Part shown: one piece after another, positions 9,527-61,316 of the stretch
Position numbering within the stretch: position 1 is the first letter of the stretch
Layout of the letters: every line of letters begins with the position of its first letter
From: Candidatus Aminicenantes bacterium
GTDB lineage: Bacteria > Acidobacteriota > Aminicenantia > Aminicenantales > Aminicenantaceae
DNA: 64,000 nucleotides
Assembly (NCBI GenBank): GCA_046483285.1
Contig: JAWODN010000121.1
Span: 5,899 to 69,898, forward strand
Direction of reading: 5' to 3'
The notes under the pieces: model-generated
What the model saw: the letters and a program-made list of their open reading frames with translations, nothing else
The model's database searches: none
What the model was told of the DNA's origin: nothing
Translations under genes and position numbers: made by a program

Positions 9527-9540
9527 GGCTCTGGTTTATC

Positions 9541-9900
9541 CGGTCTGACCTATACCTTAGCCTGAATTATTCATAAAAAAATTGCGATGTTTTTGCCAAT
9601 CTTTCCGTAACTGCGATATTCATCATTTTTATAAAAAGAACAAACATTACGTTTTTCCTTGCCGGCCTTTCATTATGATCGCAATTTTTTTACCCTTCGG
9701 GACGACATGCCGCTTTGTCATTGCGAGGCTTGCGCAAGCAAGCCGTGGCAATCCCTTTCTGCCTCGTGAAAGCGGAACCCGCCGCCCATACGAGGCAGTC
9801 AGGGATCCCTCGGTGCTTCGCACCGCGGGATGACATTGAATTAAAGAATTGTCGTCGTCTGCGGCAATCCCGGCCCGTGAATAAGCCAGACAAGTCTGAA
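9541..9900. repeat. copy of the mosaic intergenic repeat family: 9-bp-repeat remnant, module A (TTAGCCTGAnnTATTCATAAAAAAATnGCGATG), hairpin unit, module D
   Basis: 9561-9595 matches 13826-13858, 29369-29400 and 58276-58310. 9700-9835 matches the 155-bp tandem unit at 14058. 9836-9895 (ACATTGAATTAAAGAATTGTCGTCGTCTGCGGCAATCCCGGCCC) recurs at 29700-29750 and 58550-58600. Confidence 0.8.
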
Positions 9901-10128
9901 CTATACCTTAGAAAATCGAATCCTCGTGGCCATGGGAGCGGGAGATGGATCGCCGCCACGCGGATGTCCCCGGCGAGAACATCCGCTCCGATTCCGGCTT
10001 CGCTCTCCTCTCCTGCGGAGAGGAACCATGCCCGCTCAGCCTTCATACGGGCCGGCTTATCCATCATCCCGCCCCCATGGCAAAAGTTCAAAATCCGCGC
10101 CAATCGCGGCACGGCTGGCATATCAGGA

Positions 10129-11895: not shown

Positions 11896-12140
11896 CGTTC
11901 GAAAATAACAAAAATAGTCCATTTCGTCTGTCTGGTCTGTCTGGTTTATCTGGTCTATCTCGTTTATCTGGTTTATCTGGTCTGTCTGGTTTATCTGGTT
12001 TGAAAAGGGCGGGAAAGGCGAGAAAGGCGAGAAAAGCAGAAGGCCTCTGAAAAAATTAAACATGAACATTTTCATATCTTGCCTGTGGCGAAGCCCCCAT
12101 GGCAGCCGTTCGGAAGTGACACTCATGGCCGGCCCGCTCA
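11896..12140. repeat. mosaic repeat copy: 5' module (CGAAAATAACAAAAATAGTCCATTTCGTCT), eight 9-bp tandem units (GTYTRTCTG, 11926-11997), module E (GGCGAGAAAGGCGAGAAAAGCAGAAGGCCTCTGAAAAAATTAAACATGAACATTTTCAT)
   Basis: The same module order recurs at 38190-38340 (about 95% identity for module E). The 9-bp repeats match those at 13761-13823 and 18951-19004. Lies immediately upstream of the TTG start of the C69 peptidase gene. Confidence 0.8.
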
Positions 12141-13682: not shown

Positions 13683-13756
13683 GGCGGTGTAGCTCAGTCG
13701 GTTAGAGCATACGGCTCATATCCGTAGCGTCGGGGGTTCGAATCCCTCCACCGCCA
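13683..13756 (+). tRNA. tRNA with CAU anticodon (elongator tRNA-Met or lysidine-type tRNA-Ile2)
   Basis: Cloverleaf GGCGGTG/CACCGCC acceptor stem, D-arm TAGCTCAGTCGGTTAGAGCA, anticodon stem TACGG/CCGTA with loop CTCATAT, T-arm GGTTCGAATCC. The fully paired 1-72 pair argues against an initiator. CCA is not encoded. Confidence 0.85.
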
Positions 13757-13760
13757 TTCA

Positions 13761-13823
13761 GTTTATCTTGTTTGTCTAGTTTGTCTTGTTTGTCTTGTTT
13801 GTCTTGTTTATCTAGTTTGTTTA
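13761..13823. repeat. seven 9-bp tandem units (GTTTRTCTW) directly abutting the tRNA 3' end
   Basis: gtttatctt gtttgtcta gtttgtctt gtttgtctt gtttgtctt gtttatcta gtttgttta. Same 9-bp family as 11926-11997 and 18951-19004. Confidence 0.85.
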
Positions 13824-14057
13824 GCCTGACCTATTCATAAAAAAATGGCGATGACACCGTCCCCTTTGGGCGGGCCTGTCCCACCGCATCTGACTATCTC
13901 TTGTCATTCATGGTCACCCCGGGCGTTACTATGTCATCACGAGCGCCCCCTTGTCATCCCGGGAGAAGCGAAGGACCCCAGACTGCTTCGAATTGGCAAC
14001 CCATTGTTCATACGTCCTGGCGAAAGCACTCACAGATCCCTTTTCACTTCGCTCCCC
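13824..14057. repeat. mosaic repeat modules A and G (MITE-like palindromic unit GTCATCC...GGGACGAC)
   Basis: 13826-13858 is module A. 13936-14057 matches 29581-29700 and, reverse-complemented, 60700-60790. Its ends are an inverted repeat (GTCATCCTGAGCGGAGCGA / TCGCTCCGCTCCTCGGGACGAC in the 29581 copy). Confidence 0.75.
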
Positions 14058-14590
14058 GGGACGACATGCCCCTTGTCATTGCGAGGCTTGCGTCAGCAAG
14101 CCGTGGCAATCCCTTCCTGCCTGGTGAAAGCGGAACCCCCCGCCCATACCAGTCAGGGATCCCTCGGTGCTTCGCACCGCGGGATGACACACCCAAAGGC
14201 ACGGCGTGCCCCGGGACGACATGCCCCTTGTCATTGCGAGGCTTGCGTCAGCAAGCCGTGGCAATCCCTTCTTGCCTGGTGAAAGCGGAACCCCCCGCCC
14301 ATACCAGTCAGGGATCCCTCGGTGCTTCGCACCGCGGGATGACACACCCAAAGGCACGGCGTGCCCCGGGACGACAAGCCCCTTGTCATTGCGAGGCTTG
14401 CGTCAGCAAGCCGTGGCAATCCCTTCCTGCCTGGTGAAAGCGGAACCCCCCGCCCATACCAGGCAGGGATCCCTCGGTGCTTCGCACCGCGGGATGACAC
14501 ACCCAAAGGCACGGCGTGCCCTGGGACGACAAGCCCCTTGTCATTGCGAGGCTTGCGTCAGCAAGCCGTGGCAATCCCTTCCTGCCTCGT
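14058..14590. repeat. tandem array of a 155-bp hairpin-rich unit (3 full copies plus 1 truncated)
   Basis: GGGACGACATGCCCC recurs at 14058, 14213, 14368 and 14523, an exact 155-bp period with >95% identity. Each unit has an extended hairpin ATTGC-GA-GGCTTGC-GTCA-GCAAGCC-GTG-GCAAT and palindromes AGGGATCCCT, GGTGCTTCGCACC, GGCACGGCGTGCC. Single copies of the unit occur at 9700, 18700 (rc), 58415 and 60390-60660 (rc). Confidence 0.9.
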
Positions 14591-28342: not shown

Positions 28343-29280
28343 TTCACCATCCCCACGAAAATGTCTTCCAGGCTTTGATAACGGGGAACCAAAGCGTGGA
28401 TTCGGCCTTGGCGTTCGCGCACGAATTTCAGCAGGCTGTCGATTTTTTCCTGGTCATAGATTTTAATAAGGATTTGGTCCCCCCGCTGGTGGAGTCTTTC
28501 TCCGAATGTTCCCAGGGTTTCCGGTGCCATTCCGGAGACAACGGCTTCTGTGAACAGAACCTTTTTCTTGATAAGGTTCTCCAGGTCACCCTGGCTGACA
28601 ATGGCGCCGTTGATGATGATGGCCACCCGGTCGCAGATCATTTCAATATCCTGAAGAATGTGGGAAGACAGAAAGACGGTTCGTCCTTCGTCCCGGATCC
28701 GGCCAATGATATCCCGCATCTCTTTTCTTCCCAAAGGATCCAGCCCCCCCAGGGGCTCATCCAGCAAAACCAGCTCGGGATGATTCAGCAGGGCTTGAGC
28801 CAGCCCGATGCGCTGGAGCATGCCTTTGGAGTACTTGCGCAGCTGCAGTCCGGCCCAGGCTTGAAGTCCGACCATCTTGAGCAATTCCTGGATCCGCCGG
28901 TTTTGCTCATTTCCGGGAATCCGGTGGAGCTGACTGTAAAACCGCAAAAACTCTTCGGCCGTCAAATAATCATAAAAATAGGGATTTTCCGGAAGAAACC
29001 CGATTCTCTCCTTGGCGTTCAAAGACAGATGGGGGTGACCCAGGATCTCGATTTCCCCTTTTTCCGGAAAAATCAAGCCCAATATGCATTTCAAAGTGGT
29101 GGTTTTCCCGGCTCCGTTGGGGCCCAGGTATCCGAATATTTCACCTTTGGGGACTTCCAGGGAGATCCCCTTTAAAACCGTCCGGCGTTTTCGGGTGAAT
29201 TCCGCTGGAAATGATTTGTGAAGGTCGCAGATCCGCAGGGCTGTGCTCATTTTGCTGTCTCCTTTCCCCGGCGCTTCCAT
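28339..29280 (-). CDS. ABC transporter ATP-binding protein
   Basis: 313 aa. Walker A GYLGPNGAGKTTTLKCILGL. Signature YSKGMLQRIGLAQAL. Walker B LLDEP. Confidence 0.85.
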   Translation of the reverse strand: MEAPGKGDSKMSTALRICDLHKSFPAEFTRKRRTVLKGISLEVPKGEIFGYLGPNGAGKTTTLKCILGLIFPEKGEIEILGHPHLSLNAKERIGFLPENPYFYDYLTAEEFLRFYSQLHRIPGNEQNRRIQELLKMVGLQAWAGLQLRKYSKGMLQRIGLAQALLNHPELVLLDEPLGGLDPLGRKEMRDIIGRIRDEGRTVFLSSHILQDIEMICDRVAIIINGAIVSQGDLENLIKKKVLFTEAVVSGMAPETLGTFGERLHQRGDQILIKIYDQEKIDSLLKFVRERQGRIHALVPRYQSLEDIFVGMVK

Positions 29281-29339: not shown

Positions 29340-29765
29340 AAATCAACCTGCTAATCCTGACCCATTACTTAGCCTGACCTATTCATAAAAAAATGGCGAT
29401 GTTTTCATAATTTCTTTTTTTCCTAATATTTGCATGATTTTTTTGAGAATTCAATCTTGAACGTTTGTCATTATCCATATTTTCAATTTATTCGCCATTT
29501 TTTTACCCTTCGGGCGGGCCGGATCTCACCGCATCTGCCGGGTTGCGGCTCGTCGCAGTGAAGTGACGACCTTTCATTAATTTAATGTCATCCTGAGCGG
29601 AGCGAAGGATCCCGGACTGCTTCTAATTGGCAACCCATTGTCCATATGGCCTGGCGAAAGCACTCACAGATCCCTCGTCGCTCCGCTCCTCGGGACGACA
29701 TTGAATTAAAGAATTGTCGTCGTCTGCGGCAATCCCGGCCCATTCATCATCCAGGTTTGAAAATC
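29340..29765. repeat. mosaic repeat copy (module A, module F rc, module G, module D)
   Basis: 29369-29400 is module A. 29515-29580 (GGGCGGGCCGGATCTCACCGCATCTGCCGGGTTGCGGCTCGTCGCAGTGAAGTGACGACC) is the reverse complement of 38395-38510 and identical to the rc of 60795-60860. 29581-29700 is module G. 29700-29750 is module D. Confidence 0.8.
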
Positions 29766-38176: not shown

Positions 38177-38560
38177 TTCACAACAGGGATACCCTGATTT
38201 AGTTCGAAAATAACAAAAATAGTCCATTTCGTCTATCTTGTCTACCTGGTCTGAAGGGGGCGCGAAAAGCGAGAAAGGCGAGACGTGCGAGAAAAGCAGA
38301 AGGCCTCTGAAAAAATCAAAAATGAACATTTTCATTTATCGCGTGTGGCAAAACCGCCATGAATAATTATTACTTAGCCTGGATTATTCACAGGCCGGGA
38401 TTGCCGCAGATTTCGGATTGCGGCGAGGAAGTCGTGGTACTTCACTACGACGAGCTGCAAGCCGGAAGATGCGGTGAGATTCGGCCTGCCCTAAGGCTAA
38501 AAAAATGGTTCGGGCGGGCCGAATTCCACCGGTCCCCGCGTGCCGGGAATATGATAAAAC
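38177..38560. repeat. mosaic repeat copy (5' module, short 9-bp units, module E, A-like module, module F)
   Basis: 38195-38225 (TTCGAAAATAACAAAAATAGTCCATTTCGTCT) matches 11896-11925. 38255-38335 matches module E at 12003-12075. 38395-38510 is module F (GGGATTGCCGCAGATTTCGGATTGCGGCGAGGAAGTCGTGGTACTTCACTACGACGAGCTGCAAGCCGG...). Confidence 0.75.
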
Positions 38561-47224: not shown

Positions 47225-47300
47225 TATATAATAATTTAGCCTGGATAATGAACGGGCCGGGATGGCCGCAGATGCGGGACGCAGGGCCTAAAGAGGAAGA
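47225..47300. repeat. short copy of mosaic repeat modules A and F
   Basis: TTTAGCCTGGATAATGAACGGGCCGGGATGGCCGCAGATGCGGGACGCAGGGCC is similar to 38370-38420 and 60125-60170. Confidence 0.55.
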
Positions 47301-54447: not shown

Positions 54448-54540
54448 TTTCTCCTAATCTGACCCATTCATTAAAAAATGACCCGGACAGGCGGATCTTG
54501 CCGCATCAGCGGCGATCCCGGCACGTGGATTAGCCAGGCA
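54441..54540. repeat. degenerate mosaic repeat copy in the rpoD/otsA divergent promoter region
   Basis: TAATCTGACCCATTCATTAAAAAATGACC resembles module A. The following GCCGCATCAGCGGCGATCCCGGC resembles module F. Confidence 0.4.
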
Positions 54541-56982: not shown

Positions 56983-58224
56983 TCAGGAGAGGGAATGGAC
57001 AAGCAGCCCGCTCCGCAGCTTAGGTTCAAACCAAGTGGATTTGGGAGGCATGACCTTGCCGGCGTCGGCTATCCGCATTAGCTCCTGGATGGAGGGAGGA
57101 TAAACGGCAAAAGCCACCTGGTATTTTCCGCCGTCCACCACCCGCTTCAATTCTTCCAGGCCCCGGATTCCTCCCACAAAATCAATATTTTCACTGGTCC
57201 GGGGGTTTTCGATTCCGAAAAACGGAGAAAGCAGATTCTCCTGAAGATAGGAAATATCCAGGCTTTTCACAGGATCGTCTTTCATCCTTTTTTCCGGTTT
57301 TGCGGTCAGCTTGTACCACTCCCCGTCCAGATACATGCTGAATTCCCCTTTCTTCGCCGGCTTATAAGGAATTTTTCCGGCCTTTTCCACGGTGAAATTT
57401 TCTTCCAGCGCCGCGACCAATTCCTCCCGGGAATGTCCGTTGAGGTTTTTAAGAACCCGGTTATAATCCAGGATCCGGAGCTGGGCATCAGGAAACAGCA
57501 CAGCCAGAAAATAATTGTATTCTTCCTCCCCGGTATGATTGGGATCGGCCTTGCGCCGCATATTCGCCACCTTGGCGGCCGAGGCGGAGCGATGGTGGCC
57601 GTCGGCCACGTAAAGAGCATCCATTCCACCAAACTCCGCAATAATCTTTTCCGCGATGTCATCTTCGACAATCCATACCGTATGCTGAATGCCGTCTGAA
57701 GCGGTGAAATCATAGAGGGGATCATTTTTCACATTCTGTTCGACCAACCGGTTGACGCTGTCCAACTGGCGGTATGTCAGAAAAATGGGACCGGCGTTGA
57801 CATTGGTGACATCCACATGTTTAATCCGGTCCGCTTCTTTTTTCGGCCGGGTGTGCTCATGTTTTTTGATCACGTCGTTGTCGTAGTCATCCACTGAAAC
57901 ACATCCCACAATCCCGTACTGTTCCCGGCCGTCCATAACCTGCCGGTAGATGTAGAGGCAGGGACGCTCTTCCTGAATCAGTATCCCGCGGTTGATAAAT
58001 CCGTCCAGGTTTTCCCGGGCTTTGTCATAGACTTCTTGGGAATACAGGTCCGTGCCCGCCGGCAAGTCCACTTCCGGCTTGACCACATGCAGAAAGGAAT
58101 ACTCATTGCCCTTAACCAGTTCACGGGCTTCATCACTGTCCAAGACATCATAGGGATAAGACGCCACTTTATCTTCCAGGCCTTTTTTCGGTCGGATCGC
58201 TTTAAATTTTCTTAATACCGCCAT
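56983..58224 (-). CDS. DUF1015 family protein
   Basis: 413 aa. N-terminus MAVLRKFKAIRPKKGLEDKVASYPYDVLDSDEARELVKGNEYSFLHVVKPE matches the conserved DUF1015 start pattern. Confidence 0.5.
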   Translation of the reverse strand: MAVLRKFKAIRPKKGLEDKVASYPYDVLDSDEARELVKGNEYSFLHVVKPEVDLPAGTDLYSQEVYDKARENLDGFINRGILIQEERPCLYIYRQVMDGREQYGIVGCVSVDDYDNDVIKKHEHTRPKKEADRIKHVDVTNVNAGPIFLTYRQLDSVNRLVEQNVKNDPLYDFTASDGIQHTVWIVEDDIAEKIIAEFGGMDALYVADGHHRSASAAKVANMRRKADPNHTGEEEYNYFLAVLFPDAQLRILDYNRVLKNLNGHSREELVAALEENFTVEKAGKIPYKPAKKGEFSMYLDGEWYKLTAKPEKRMKDDPVKSLDISYLQENLLSPFFGIENPRTSENIDFVGGIRGLEELKRVVDGGKYQVAFAVYPPSIQELMRIADAGKVMPPKSTWFEPKLRSGLLVHSLS

Positions 58225-58254
58225 AACTATCTCCTTTCATATATCTGGCCTCTC

Positions 58255-58625
58255 CCTCAGCCTGGCCTATTACTTAGCCTGATCTATTCATAAAAAAATT
58301 GCGATGTTTTTGCAATCTCTTTCTTGTCAGCGATAAGCATGGTTTTTAATGAAAGATCAAATGGAACGTTTTTCATTTTTTTAATTGTTATTTTAATCGC
58401 AATTTTTTTACCCTTCGGGACGACATGCCGCTTTGTCATTGCGAGGCTTGCGCCAGCAAGCCGTAGCAATCCCTTTCTGCCTCGTGAAAGCGGAACCCAC
58501 CGCCCATACGAGGCAGTCAGAGATCCCTCGTCGCTCCGCTCCTCGGGACGACATTGAATTAAAAAATTGTCGTCGTCTGCGGCAATCTCGGCCCGTGAAT
58601 ACTTCAGGTTAGTGTAGAGAATGGG
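58255..58625. repeat. mosaic repeat copy (module A, hairpin unit, module D), forward orientation
   Basis: 58276-58310 is module A. 58415-58545 is one hairpin unit (GTCATTGCGAGGCTTGCGCCAGCAAGCCGTAGCAATCCC...). 58550-58600 is module D. Confidence 0.8.
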
Positions 58626-58672
58626 TTTTTTTTTGTCAAATCACAGCAGCCGCTGCCCGGCTGCGCCTCAGG

Positions 58673-59059
58673 CTAACTCTTTTTCCGGGTAAAAAACCGT
58701 TTCAGTTTTTCAGATAGTCCTTTTTTTTGATCTCCGTCTTCGATAATGAGTTTTCCTGTGGTGGTTCGAAAATAAGAATCTTCTTCCCGGCGAGGCGGCA
58801 TATGAAGCACGGTTTGATCATATTTTTTTCGTTTCTGGGGAACTCCGAGCACGCTGTAGGCTTGCTCTATTTTTTCAAGAACATCTTCCCGCTCAGCGTC
58901 TTTGATGAGACTGTAGAGGGCCATGGAACTGCGGCTGTATGCCTGCTTGCAGATCTGGTAAGCCCGGTGGATTTCCTCCTGGGATGCGCTTCTGGAAACG
59001 TCCATAATTTCATAATAGTTCATGTCTTCAATTTTTTTAAATTTCATTTGTTTTTTCAT
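58673..59059 (-). CDS. small hypothetical protein with J-domain-like helices but no HPD motif
   Basis: 128 aa. NYYEIMDVSRSASQEEIHRAYQI...KIEQAYSVLGVPQKRKKYD resembles J-domain helices II and III without HPD. Sits 33 nt downstream of the MinD-like gene. Confidence 0.35.
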   Translation of the reverse strand: MKKQMKFKKIEDMNYYEIMDVSRSASQEEIHRAYQICKQAYSRSSMALYSLIKDAEREDVLEKIEQAYSVLGVPQKRKKYDQTVLHMPPRREEDSYFRTTTGKLIIEDGDQKKGLSEKLKRFFTRKKS

Positions 59060-59092
59060 ACCTCAGGCCTGACATCGAAGCCCGCTTTTCAT

Positions 59093-60046
59093 TCAGGGGG
59101 GATACCCTGGATTTTCTTTATCTGTTTTGACCATTTTTTCCGCGATATTTTTAAAAGAAATCCCTGCCGGGGTATTTTGAAATTGATGGATAAAAGGGAT
59201 CATCTTTTTTACGCTGAGATGAATTTTCTCATCGAAGGGGATGGCTCCTATATAATTAATATTGATAACCAGGTGTTTTTGCACCACCTTGGTGATCGAT
59301 TCTCCCAGATAATAATCTCTTTCATCCCGGGCCTTATTGATGACCAGGCGCGGCTGAAAACGGGTCAAAGCCCGGTATAAAAGATCGGCATAATGTTGAT
59401 CATGAGAGATGATTTCCTCCAAAAAGCTGTAAATGGATTTGGAATTGTTTTTGACTTGAGAAGATGCTTTTTTAAAAAGATCCTGGATATTGTAATGTCT
59501 GCTGTACAGATTGAGAATACGCATTATGCAGGATTTAAGAAAATAATAGGAGTTTTCTATTGAAGTGGGTTCCGGATTGATCACCAATATGCCGGGGTTG
59601 GACAAAAGGAAAAAATCAACACAATTATATGAAGAACCGGTCCCAATATCCATGACCACACGCTTGGTATTAAAAGTTTTGATATGCCGCATCAATTTAA
59701 GCTTTTTATAGTAGTTTAAGTTGGATGTGAACAGAAGATCATCTGTTCCTTTTATCAAACGGAGGTTATCAAAAGGAGTGGGGACGAGAGTTTCTTTGAG
59801 AGCCGGGACTTCGTTGGAAATAAAATGACCGAGATCAGTCCGGGCTTTTTTTAAACCGAAAAAAGTATGAAGATTGGGGCCGCCGAGGTCGGCGTCGATC
59901 AAGACCACGTCTTCCCCCATTTGAGCCAGCAATAAACCAAGATTGGCGGTGAAAAAACTTTTTCCTGTTCCTCCTTTCCCTCCGCCGACAGCCCAAATGG
60001 TTTTCTGAGAGCCGGAATGGAAGGATAAAACCGGAATTTTTCCCAT
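59093..60046 (-). CDS. MinD/FlhG/ParA-type P-loop ATPase
   Basis: 317 aa. Deviant Walker A VGGGKGGTGKSFFTANLGLLLAQMGEDVVLIDADLGGPNL. Confidence 0.7.
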   Translation of the reverse strand: MGKIPVLSFHSGSQKTIWAVGGGKGGTGKSFFTANLGLLLAQMGEDVVLIDADLGGPNLHTFFGLKKARTDLGHFISNEVPALKETLVPTPFDNLRLIKGTDDLLFTSNLNYYKKLKLMRHIKTFNTKRVVMDIGTGSSYNCVDFFLLSNPGILVINPEPTSIENSYYFLKSCIMRILNLYSRHYNIQDLFKKASSQVKNNSKSIYSFLEEIISHDQHYADLLYRALTRFQPRLVINKARDERDYYLGESITKVVQKHLVININYIGAIPFDEKIHLSVKKMIPFIHQFQNTPAGISFKNIAEKMVKTDKENPGYPP

Positions 60047-60099
60047 GGGTATGCGTTTCTATAATTATTTCCGCTTTCACGCGAAGTTAAAACATTTTA

Positions 60100-61010
60100 T
60101 CATGATTATCTTCATTAAACCAGCCGTTCGGATCAACTGGGCGGGGTTGCCGCAGATGCCAAGTCAGGCTGGAAATATGTTCTTTTTTAATCAATCCATT
60201 GTATTTATATCTGATTTTTGGTATTTTATTTATCCGGACTTCACGTGACACAAAATTGATTCATGTCTGCTTTCAAGATGACAAGTTTTGTCATTTTTTA
60301 TATGAATTCATCATGAGCATAACACACCACGAAGGATGAAAATGATTTCAATGTCATTTCCGGACCGGAGCCCTTTTGAGTCTGTCATTCCGGGGCACGC
60401 CGTGCCTTTGAGTGTGTCATCCCGCGGTGCGAAGCACCGAGGGATTCCTTACTGCTTCGTCTTGGCGGTGGATTCCGCTTTCACGAGGCAGGAAGGGATT
60501 GCCACGCGGCCTCCGGCCGCTCGCAATGACAAAGCGGCGGGAAGGGATGGCCACGGCTTGCTGACGCAAGCCTCGCAATGACAAGGGGGGCAGAAAGGGA
60601 TAACCGCACGGCCTCCGGCCGCTCGCCATGACATGCTGTGTGTCATTCCGGGGCACGCCGTGCCTTTGAGTGTGTCATCCCGCGGTGCGAAGCGATGAGG
60701 GATCTGTGAGTGCTTTCGCCAGGCCGTATGGAGAATGGGTTGCCAATTCGAAGCAGTCCGGGATCCTTCGCTCCGCTCAGGATGACATTAAATTAATGAA
60801 AGGTCGTCACTTCACTGCGACGAGCCGCAACCCGGCAGATGCAGTGAGATCCGGCCCGCCCGAAGGGTAAAAAAATGGCGATTATAATGAAATACCGGCA
60901 AGGAAAAACGCGATGTATGTGCTTCTTATAAAAATGATGAATATCGGTGTTAATGAAAGATTGGCAAAAACATCGCCATTTTTTTATGAATAGGCCAGGT
61001 AAGGAGAAAG
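60100..61010. repeat. mosaic repeat cluster: module F, two hairpin units (rc), module G (rc), module F (rc), module A (rc)
   Basis: 60125-60170 is module F. 60330-60660 holds two reverse-complement copies of the 155-bp unit family. 60700-60790 is the rc of module G. 60795-60860 is the rc of the 29515 segment. 60975-61008 (AAAACATCGCCATTTTTTTATGAATAGGCCAGG) is the rc of module A at 58276. Confidence 0.8.
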
Positions 61011-61016
61011 AATTCG

Positions 61017-61316
61017 TTGAGAGAATATAAAAATGAGGAAAGCAAATTCCGGTTTGTCACTTTAGCCTCCCTGCGGGCCAAACAGCTGCTTAGAGGGGCT
61101 AAACCCAAGGTGAAAATGCGAAGCAGGAACTTGATCAGATTGGCTCAGGAAGAGATAGAGCGGGGACTTATTGATTACCGGGTTTTGGAGCAGGAAAAAG
61201 AAGACCAGGAACCGAAAGGAGAGGCGGTGGAAGCGGCGGAGCCGTCATCTTCTGTGAATGAAACGGAAGCGGAAGGAAGTCCTGAAGAGCGGGAAGATGA
61301 ATCCAAGGAGAAATAG
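61017..61316 (+). CDS. rpoZ: DNA-directed RNA polymerase subunit omega
   Basis: 99 aa. RFVTLASLRAKQLLRGAKPKV and LAQEEIERGLIDYRVLE align to the RpoZ core (RF.LV..A..RARQ...G..P.V ... EI.EGLI). Acidic tail. Confidence 0.65.
   Translation: MREYKNEESKFRFVTLASLRAKQLLRGAKPKVKMRSRNLIRLAQEEIERGLIDYRVLEQEKEDQEPKGEAVEAAEPSSSVNETEAEGSPEEREDESKEK

Follow-up and report, generated by a model that had tools for sequence, protein, structure and literature searches.

A probably ancestral operon of a MinD/FlhG-like ATPase and a J-domain-like protein beside rpoZ in Aminicenantes, with flanking spacers colonised by MITE-like elements

Two genes of a Candidatus Aminicenantes bacterium, encoding an ATPase of the MinD/FlhG type and a small J-domain-like (J-like) protein, lie between inverted copies of a repeat, and the question raised by this locus is whether the repeats turn the 2.7-kb segment into a cassette or merely happen to flank it. 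The locus was analysed within a window, namely the whole stretch of 64,000 nucleotides (nt) taken from contig JAWODN010000121.1 (positions 5,899 to 69,898 of the forward strand). The original prediction had offered three readings of the bracketed pair: coincidence given the abundance of the repeats, a repeat-mediated insertion or inversion cassette, or a ParA-like positioning module with its small partner. The segment and its neighbours are arranged as follows (aa, amino acids; ORF, open reading frame; MITE, miniature inverted-repeat transposable element).

56983..58224, minus strand: DUF1015 gene, the left neighbour (Pfam DUF1015, 391.7 bits)
58278-58608, plus strand: c6, MITE-like element of 331 nt (86% identical to 9545-9883)
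58646..58664, minus strand: G+C-rich hairpin directly 3' of the stop codon of the J-like gene, candidate operon terminator (consensus scan only)
58673..59059, minus strand: J-domain-like partner, longest ORF 128 aa (Pfam DnaJ PF00226, 35.8 bits against a cut-off of 27.8)
59093..60046, minus strand: FlhG/MinD-family deviant Walker A ATPase of 317 aa (Pfam, alignment, structure model)
60047..60301, no strand: native non-repeat spacer upstream of the ATPase gene (blastn)
60302-60999, minus strand: c7, compound MITE-like element of about 700 nt (85% identical to 29368-29700, 83% to 18622-18860)
61017..61316, plus strand: rpoZ, RNA polymerase omega, divergent from the ATPase gene (Pfam RNA_pol_Rpb6, 32.7 bits; synteny)

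The window proteins were mapped by tblastn onto 60 further loci from a genome-collection scan, and all ORFs were clustered. The arrangement of the window, in which TatD, polyprenyl synthase and CYTH genes read toward an opposing rpoZ, and the ATPase gene diverges from rpoZ and is followed by the J-like gene, recurred in about 36 loci of Aminicenantes; in about 45 loci, the ATPase gene has rpoZ and the J-like gene as its neighbours. The gap between rpoZ and the ATPase gene was 136-485 nt in those approximately 36 loci, as opposed to 970 nt in the window, and most of these spacers were devoid of element ends. Locus L007, which is among the closest relatives, has a 200-nt spacer without an element, and the spacer of locus L001 has one that is inserted elsewhere and points the other way; a native piece (60198-60230) is common to the window, L001 and L007 (blastn). 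An element with left and right ends was also found between the ATPase and J-like genes of locus L025 (6856-7231), where the gap is 376 nt rather than the usual 10-60 nt and the otherwise tight operon is split. Because the order is the same in some 36 relatives, with spacers that are mostly free of elements, the pair must be ancestral at this site and the elements later, independent insertions. We thus consider it likely that the locus is an ancestral, vertically inherited two-gene operon at a conserved site beside rpoZ, encoding a probable ATPase switch and its cognate partner, and that its flanking spacers were colonised independently by MITE-like copies.

The repeat first described as module A is the left (L) terminus of this MITE-like element, which is dispersed in Aminicenantes genomes. 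The pattern CCTGANCTATTCATAAAAAAAT, allowing up to 3 mismatches, matched the window 6 times versus 0.00 expected, and two of these matches (58278-58299 on the plus and 60978-60999 on the minus strand) bracket the operon. That these two copies and the hairpin units beside them are mutually inverted was borne out by alignment, with 76% identity over 151 nt between 58273-58419 and 61003-60859, and 80% between 58427-58553 and 60538-60415. In the alignment of copies, the L terminus (CCTGAnCTATTCATAAAAAAATGGCGATG) is followed by about 95 AT-rich nt, by an internal inverted copy (AATCGCCATTTTTTT) and then by G+C-rich hairpin units that vary in number and can be stacked; the right (R) terminus, GCAATCyCGrCyCGTGAATAATCCAGG, ends in CGTGAATAATCCAGG. 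Each terminus is an inverted repeat of the other, and both share the core CCTGRnnTATTCAY. Compared with shuffled controls, both flanking elements are strongly self-folding (z -7.06 for c6 and -6.21 for c7), and the termini of c6 pair in the fold. The parts of the two elements are listed below, with flanks read from the sequence.

58274-58277, no strand: TTAG, left target-site duplication of c6
58278-58306, plus strand: L terminus of c6 (module A)
near 58394-58408: internal inverted copy of c6, AATCGCAATTTTTTT
58415-58555: hairpin units of c6
58592-58608: R terminus of c6
58609-58612: TTAG, right target-site duplication of c6
60980-60999: L terminus of c7, abutting the rpoZ ribosome-binding site

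The interior of c7 contains expanded arrays of hairpin units with a 66-nt internal repeat (60380-60445 and 60638-60703); an R terminus could not be recognised in c7, whose inner end looks like a fragment of a second module A. Since c6 carries its own TTAG/TTAG duplication, it was inserted alone. Together with c6 and c7, the following copies and fragments occupy at least eight intergenic regions of the window, in both orientations.

9561-9890, plus strand: element copy or fragment (window alignment of copies)
13825 to about 14590, plus strand: element copy
18536 to about 18876, minus strand: element copy
29373-29755, plus strand: element copy
about 38378-38508, minus strand: element copy
47240-47256, minus strand: R-end fragment
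54458-54538: degenerate 81-nt copy upstream of rpoD (L end with 3 mismatches, R end with 4)

With a family this abundant in both orientations, two neighbouring copies will be inverted about half the time. The number of repeats is far above chance, whereas the inverted arrangement of the pair flanking the operon is within it, so the suspicion voiced originally, that the bracketing was coincidental, has gained support.

Mobility was examined in a survey of elements with L and R ends in about 190 fetched loci and in a metagenome scan for the termini. The termini were also found in the other Aminicenantes genomes fetched for synteny, and at least 120 metagenome stretches matched them. The distance from L to R was 200-299 nt in 48 of 100 copies and below 100 nt in 17, which are little more than two termini. 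Identical 4-nt flanks were present in 33 of 91 complete copies, against 6.8 expected by permutation (maximum of 14 in 500). The commonest flank was TTAA, then TTAG and CTAG, with CTAA also frequent, and tandem arrays of copies share a TTAR tetranucleotide; a 4-bp target of the YTAR type is typical of the IS5 group. The orthologous spacer between rpoZ and the ATPase gene is polymorphic for the insertion, being empty in L007 and in most relatives. The repeats are a MITE-like family, with terminal inverted repeats, many short non-coding copies and a 4-bp target duplication.

Like MITEs (IS5-type or others targeting TTAA/YTAR) and the mosaics of repetitive extragenic palindromes and bacterial interspersed mosaic elements (REP/BIME), the element has terminal inverted repeats, a size of 50-400 nt, no coding capacity and many copies, in addition to a TTAA/TTAG/CTAG 4-bp duplication, presence/absence differences between genomes and strong self-folding. 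It differs from typical MITEs in having termini unusually conserved across a phylum-level group, a modular interior in which hairpin units expand in tandem, and an L terminus that often abuts start codons, and it differs from MITEs with a known parent in that none was found in the loci fetched. The element is therefore ordinary in kind, and unusual in the conservation of its termini and in their closeness to start codons. A literature search for MITEs in Aminicenantes returned nothing specific. Many element matches in the metagenome loci (L067-L186) lay within about 150 nt of contig ends, and short-read assemblies of Aminicenantes genomes probably break at copies of this family.

Several further features of the repeats were noted. 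Within the copy starting at 13825, a 155-nt block of hairpin units is repeated three times in tandem (14045-14590; 96-97% identical), evidence of tandem expansion among the internal hairpin modules. A unit of 9 nt (GTTTGTCTT or GTCTGTCTG) is repeated in tandem runs of 6-7 copies at 13761-13832 and 11917-11997 and also at 38199-38250; it is similar to the 9 nt that open the L terminus region (GCCTGACCT), and one run leads straight into an L terminus just 3' of a tRNA (13683-13756). To the left of c6 (58225-58277) there is a second, partial L-terminus-like unit, CCTGGCCTATTAC, followed by TTAG; a doubled arrangement of this kind was also seen at 29356-29372 and 9540-9560, and the unit GTCTGAACTATACCTTAG recurs at 9891-9912, on the far side of the 9561-9890 copy. 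Such doubled units may be nested insertions or subterminal repeats. An Rfam search over the whole window detected two tRNAs only, and the repeats match no RNA family. A sigma-54 reading of TGGCA-N-GC in module A was dropped because the GG is missing in two copies, and reading CCCTTCGGG with its T/A run as an intrinsic terminator was rejected, because on one strand the T run comes before the hairpin, and on the other the hairpin is followed by an A run.

The position of the L termini relative to genes suggests an additional role. In a crude ORF call, 74 of 172 L termini lay within 80 nt of the start of an outward-reading ORF, and in the window the distance to the start codon is 11 nt for rpoD, 18 nt for rpoZ (a TTG start) and 50 nt for DUF1015, with a further L terminus beside a 313-aa gene ending at 29280. 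The end of the degenerate copy at 54458-54538 contributes the TTAGGAG ribosome-binding site of rpoD, and c7 is inserted immediately beside that of rpoZ. Insertion of c7 would have displaced the native upstream region of rpoZ by about 700 nt, and because the element separates the gene from that region, rpoZ is probably transcribed from or through the c7 L terminus, in which a candidate promoter, TTGGCA-N18-TATGAA, was spotted by eye. The L terminus could thus supply, or at least tolerate, expression signals. In loci L025 (4838-4907) and L048 (6887-6950), the whole spacer between the polyprenyl synthase and CYTH genes is taken up by a hairpin of about 50 nt, made of two adjacent inverted termini; the stop codon falls in its left flank and the ribosome-binding site in its right flank.

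These positions could be taken to mean that the repeats are native regulatory modules of Aminicenantes (a portable promoter, ribosome-binding site or RNA hairpin) selected at gene boundaries and not mobile at all, a view further favoured by the 30-nt L terminus being nearly identical in very divergent genomes and by the long hairpins that adjacent inverted termini make between co-directional genes. We consider it unlikely, because duplicated 4-nt flanks are well over expectation, the presence, site and orientation of the element vary among orthologous spacers, some copies follow a stop codon, separate convergent genes or interrupt the ATPase-J operon, and tandem copies share TTAR. The two views are nevertheless compatible, in the form of a mobile element whose end was co-opted for expression.

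The 317-aa ORF had been recognised from the start as a MinD/FlhG-like ATPase bearing GGGKGGTGKS, and this assignment stands. The Pfam models ParA, CbiA and AAA_31 scored above their cut-offs, as expected of the ParA/MinD superfamily, and the motifs GGGKGGTGKS (with the signature lysine), IDADLGGPNL (Walker A'), D133-IGTG (Walker B) and NPEPTSIEN were invariant in 14 family members. An NCBI protein from a Candidatus Aminicenantes metagenome-assembled genome (MAG) matches the window ATPase at 100% identity; homologues at 59-75% identity run into the thousands, and many homologues are named FlhG by the Joint Genome Institute (JGI). The best sequence match of the ATPase in the PDB was FleN (E 5.6e-23), then FlhG and MinD, over residues 17-171 only. 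The AlphaFold2 (AF2) model (mean predicted local confidence, pLDDT, 76.9) likewise matched FleN best (E 7e-19, TM-score 0.85 on the target), then FlhG, MinD and Soj, with extra helices at about 188-229. The N-terminus reads MGKIPVLSFHSGSQK, and in the general sequence comparison the alignment to FleN/FlhG began only at residues 14-17; in FlhG, an N-terminal activator segment precedes the ATPase core. At the other end, the 14 members differ in both the length and the sequence of what follows SIAEKL.

The NCBIfam scores were far from those of the named families: 64.9 bits for TIGR01968 minD_bact (cut-off 212.9), 76.2 for minD_arch (201.75), 27.8 for PRK10818 (508) and 21.4 for the partition ParA model NF041546 (180). 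The ATPase is of the FleN/FlhG branch of the ParA/MinD superfamily but falls outside the FlhG, MinD and ParA membership tests. The surroundings of the gene were examined with Pfam in 44-64 kb of the window and in loci L053 and L060, and from precomputed lists for L001-L006 and L187-L191. In agreement with what had been noted earlier, no flagellar, chemotaxis or partition genes were detected in the 44-64 kb region, and no flhF, fliM, minC, minE or ParB-like neighbours were found in any of these annotated neighbourhoods. The region encodes instead a phosphotransferase/M23 peptidase/class-III aminotransferase fusion, an alanine racemase/GNAT acetyltransferase fusion, a methyltransferase, a sodium:solute symporter, a sulfatase, RpoD, a trehalose-6-phosphate synthase/phosphatase, DUF1015, RpoZ, CYTH, polyprenyl synthase and TatD proteins. 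Gene maps of the other loci revealed no conserved neighbours beyond the rpoZ block, and PADLOC defence models returned nothing meaningful.

An ordinary FlhG (a regulator of flagellar number) or MinD (a selector of the division site) with its partners encoded elsewhere, and the J-like gene as an unrelated neighbour, would account for the names given to many homologues by JGI, for the best structural and sequence matches being FleN, FlhG and MinD, and for the PEPTSIEN and DxGxG motifs, which we take to be FlhG-like. It is nonetheless very unlikely, as the two MinD models fall far short of their cut-offs, the sequence alignment is limited to residues 17-171, the model has extra helices, a conserved C-terminal amphipathic helix was not found, and neither flhF and fliM nor minC and minE appear in the annotated neighbourhoods. 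A canonical MinD, envisaged originally as a counter-argument, is not what these scores indicate. In addition, the J-like gene follows the ATPase gene in nearly every locus, in several phyla.

Whether the repeats could have moved or inverted this pair was judged from its surroundings in the relatives. In 10 loci (L005/6, L017, L027, L029, L031, L033, L034, L037 and L051) the pair keeps its place between rpoZ and the RmuC side but is turned round, so that the ATPase, J-like and rpoZ genes read in one direction and the CYTH gene against them. In a neighbour-joining tree of the ATPase these loci form one clade, sister to all others, and being monophyletic and basal they represent a single ancient event. 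Neither element ends nor other inverted repeats of note bracket the pair in this clade, and the inversion has no tie to the repeats studied here; the inverted orientation that had been suggested as a check thus does exist among relatives, without the bracketing repeats that would connect it to a cassette. The second suggested check, an empty site with DUF1015 next to rpoZ, was seen in none of the loci. In not one of some 50 related loci does DUF1015 adjoin the pair, and the closest relatives have a K+ channel gene in its place.

A composite transposon, or an invertible or recombination-prone cassette made of two inverted element copies and carrying both genes, would explain why the outermost ends are both L-type termini, inverted and 2722 nt apart, with arms 76% identical over 151 nt, why the pair was inverted in place in the sister clade and why synteny with the closest relatives is broken on the DUF1015 side. 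It is nevertheless highly improbable. The pair has the same place and orientation in about 36 relatives, mostly without elements, which is the repeat-free gene order that the original prediction had named as telling against a cassette. Moreover, c6 has its own TTAG/TTAG flanks while the 2.7-kb segment as a whole is bordered by unlike tetranucleotides (TTAG on one side, TAAG on the other), the inverted clade is single, basal and without flanking inverted repeats, and short arms at 76% identity are a poor substrate for homologous recombination. Ordinary genes are bracketed alike in other contigs (L106, L143 and L172), so that bracketing by inverted ends is a routine by-product of element density. 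The inverted arrangement of c6 and c7 is incidental, and we return to the operon as an ancestral unit.

The second gene of the operon encodes a protein that had been described as 128 aa long, J-domain-like and lacking the HPD tripeptide, a description upheld by the profile search (Pfam DnaJ, 35.8 bits) and by SRS at the HPD position. The true start is likely the ATG at 59047, giving a 124-aa protein beginning with MKFKK, because this agrees with the family alignment and with a 124-aa NCBI protein. In the stretch between the two genes (59060-59092), the ATPase and J-like ORFs are in the same frame, one stop and 10 codons apart, which is probably meaningless. The AF2 model of the partner superposes on the J domains of CbpA, Tid1 and DNJ-12 with root-mean-square deviations of 1.7-2.9 Å. 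HPD was absent from 58 of 58 partners. This tripeptide, located between helices II and III, is required for stimulating the Hsp70 ATPase, and a J fold that has lost it cannot drive DnaK. Conserved features of the partner are a Lys-rich N-terminus (MK-x-KK-x-E), the J-like helices, the motifs KRK-x-YD and FRxST-x-KL-x-IED, and a basic C-terminal helix. A weak match to the ActJ model of NCBIfam (26 bits, cut-off 150) was also recorded. That the small protein might be a working co-chaperone recruiting DnaK/Hsp70 to the ATPase or to clients, as the Pfam DnaJ score above gathering and the superposition on true J domains would allow, is scarcely credible given the lack of HPD in every partner, of glycine/phenylalanine (G/F), zinc-finger and client-binding domains in Pfam and NCBIfam searches, and of any NCBIfam DnaJ score above 45 bits (cut-offs of at least 338).

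The pair is not restricted to Aminicenantes, where conservation is 59-75% for the ATPase and 37-69% for the partner. An ATPase gene followed by a partner gene was also found in Thermodesulfobacteriota, in a 'Deltaproteobacteria' MAG and in Bdellovibrionota, with ATPase identities of 27-38%. In those groups the partner is about 210 aa long and has a C-terminal helix-turn-helix (HTH) domain of the RodZ type, HTH_25 (66-71 bits), to which RodZ NCBIfam models match weakly. A word-based homologue search with the small protein retrieved 7 matches; the long forms came from an exhaustive profile search, which retrieved further long forms in which the whole Aminicenantes protein is matched and HTH_25 is added. 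A long form adjoins the ATPase gene in locus L187. A deeper relative (L189 and L190; contigs k141_356844 and Ga0316628_100014237) keeps the DUF885-TatD-(YajQ)-polyprenyl-CYTH-rpoZ block and has a long J-like partner with HTH_25, with an SDF transporter gene between rpoZ and the ATPase gene. Since the long form occurs both in these rpoZ-syntenic loci and in other phyla, the short Aminicenantes partner looks like a derivative that lost the HTH. The contexts elsewhere are housekeeping or envelope-related: glmS and glmU lie upstream and a gene for a SPOR-domain protein downstream of the pair in L053, and in L060 the pair is preceded by cdsA, rseP and tsaB and followed by rluD and pgeF.

ATP sandwich dimers, engagement of the N-terminal region of a partner and C-terminal binding to a matrix are traits of the ParA/MinD family (PMC11407121). 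By analogy, the ATPase would act as an ATP-dependent sandwich dimer, which the partner would bind, probably via its basic N-terminal region, stimulating hydrolysis, while the C-terminal part of the partner, a basic helix in Aminicenantes and HTH_25 elsewhere, would provide the link to an organised structure. The downstream protein is thus probably a cognate partner or activator of the ATPase. Its most likely role is in a housekeeping spatial or regulatory switch tied to the envelope or cytoskeleton, and not in flagellar placement or DNA partition; our best guess, envelope or cytoskeleton, draws on the RodZ type of the HTH and on the genes found beside the pair in other phyla. The third of the original readings, a ParA-like module with its small partner, is in this respect supported at the level of sequence, by the occurrence of the pair across phyla, by the bona fide HPD-less J fold and by the non-canonical ATPase.

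Comparison with known systems places the pair close to several of them and within none. With FleN/FlhG (PDB 5j1j, 4rz2/4rz3), the best sequence and fold match, the ATPase shares the deviant Walker A with its signature lysine, the DADLGGPNL Walker A' and the PEPTS switch motif, but it is only 19-25% identical, has extra helices at about 188-229, unaligned residues 1-16 and an unconserved tail, and its family is never beside flagellar genes in the neighbourhoods examined, where the J-like gene always follows. Like FlhG, it is probably an ATP-dependent dimer switched by partners (PMC11407121). As in MinD-MinE, ParA-ParB, McdA-McdB and PomZ-PomXY, a deviant Walker A ATPase is combined with a small, fast-evolving partner with a basic N-terminus; unlike in those systems, the partner here has a J fold with or without a RodZ-type HTH, and MinC, parS, ParB and carboxysome genes are not there. 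The 2024 family review (PMC11407121) makes no mention of a partner class of J-like or RodZ-HTH type, and the literature searches returned nothing specific on J-like or RodZ-like partners of a MinD/FlhG-like ATPase.

In RodZ, the N-terminal HTH_25 domain binds MreB. The long-form partners resemble RodZ in bearing HTH_25, but this domain is C-terminal and not N-terminal, a transmembrane or periplasmic part is missing, and the window protein has no HTH_25. HPD-less J-like domains, for instance those of the cyanobacterial ZipN/Ftn2/ARC6 proteins, use the J fold as a scaffold and not as an Hsp70 activator. Vibrio SflA, a protein with a DnaJ-like domain, is reportedly tied genetically to flhF and flhG mutants (PMC7226244), and is a loose parallel only. 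Beyond the J fold, ZipN/Ftn2/ARC6 and SflA are not known to share specific homology with the partner, and their architectures differ.

These similarities and differences lead us to put forward, tentatively and as a possible reading, that the pair represents an undescribed ParA/MinD branch in which an HPD-less J fold was repurposed as an ATPase adaptor, with an ancestral long form fused to a RodZ-type HTH_25, in a housekeeping operon of Aminicenantes/Acidobacteriota, Thermodesulfobacteriota and Bdellovibrionota. In such a branch the HTH or the basic helix would tie the switch to MreB, membrane or nucleoid.

Several observations run counter to the interpretation developed here. The DUF1015 neighbour occurs only in this genome, so a rearrangement did take place, either at the left element or close to it. 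Neither an autonomous element nor a transposase turned up between distant L and R termini in the approximately 190 loci, the L106, L143 and L172 intervals being ordinary single genes, so the mobility of the family is argued from target duplications and from presence/absence differences between genomes. The promoter candidate in the c7 L terminus was absent from the output of a consensus scan. As to the proteins, a conserved C-terminal amphipathic or targeting helix was not found in the ATPase among the 14 members, and the unconserved tail means that there is no conserved membrane helix. The tail helix of the partner has a median hydrophobic moment of 0.67 and a median z of 1.16 relative to shuffles, so that its amphipathicity is only suggestive. 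The link between the ATPase and its partner is drawn from adjacency and co-conservation, and among the matrix candidates (membrane, DNA and MreB) none stands out.

Some hosts of the pair, such as Bdellovibrio, are culturable and genetically tractable, which makes the ATPase-partner system testable. For orphan ParA/MinD ATPases, which attract interest at present, the identification of partner and cargo is a stated open need (PMC11407121). For the genome itself, inverted repeats around genes record separate insertions of a small, very abundant mobile element and do not delimit cassettes, and the same is to be expected for other bracketed genes in the window. With its ends set against the start codons of rpoD and rpoZ, this element family may also act as a portable expression signal.

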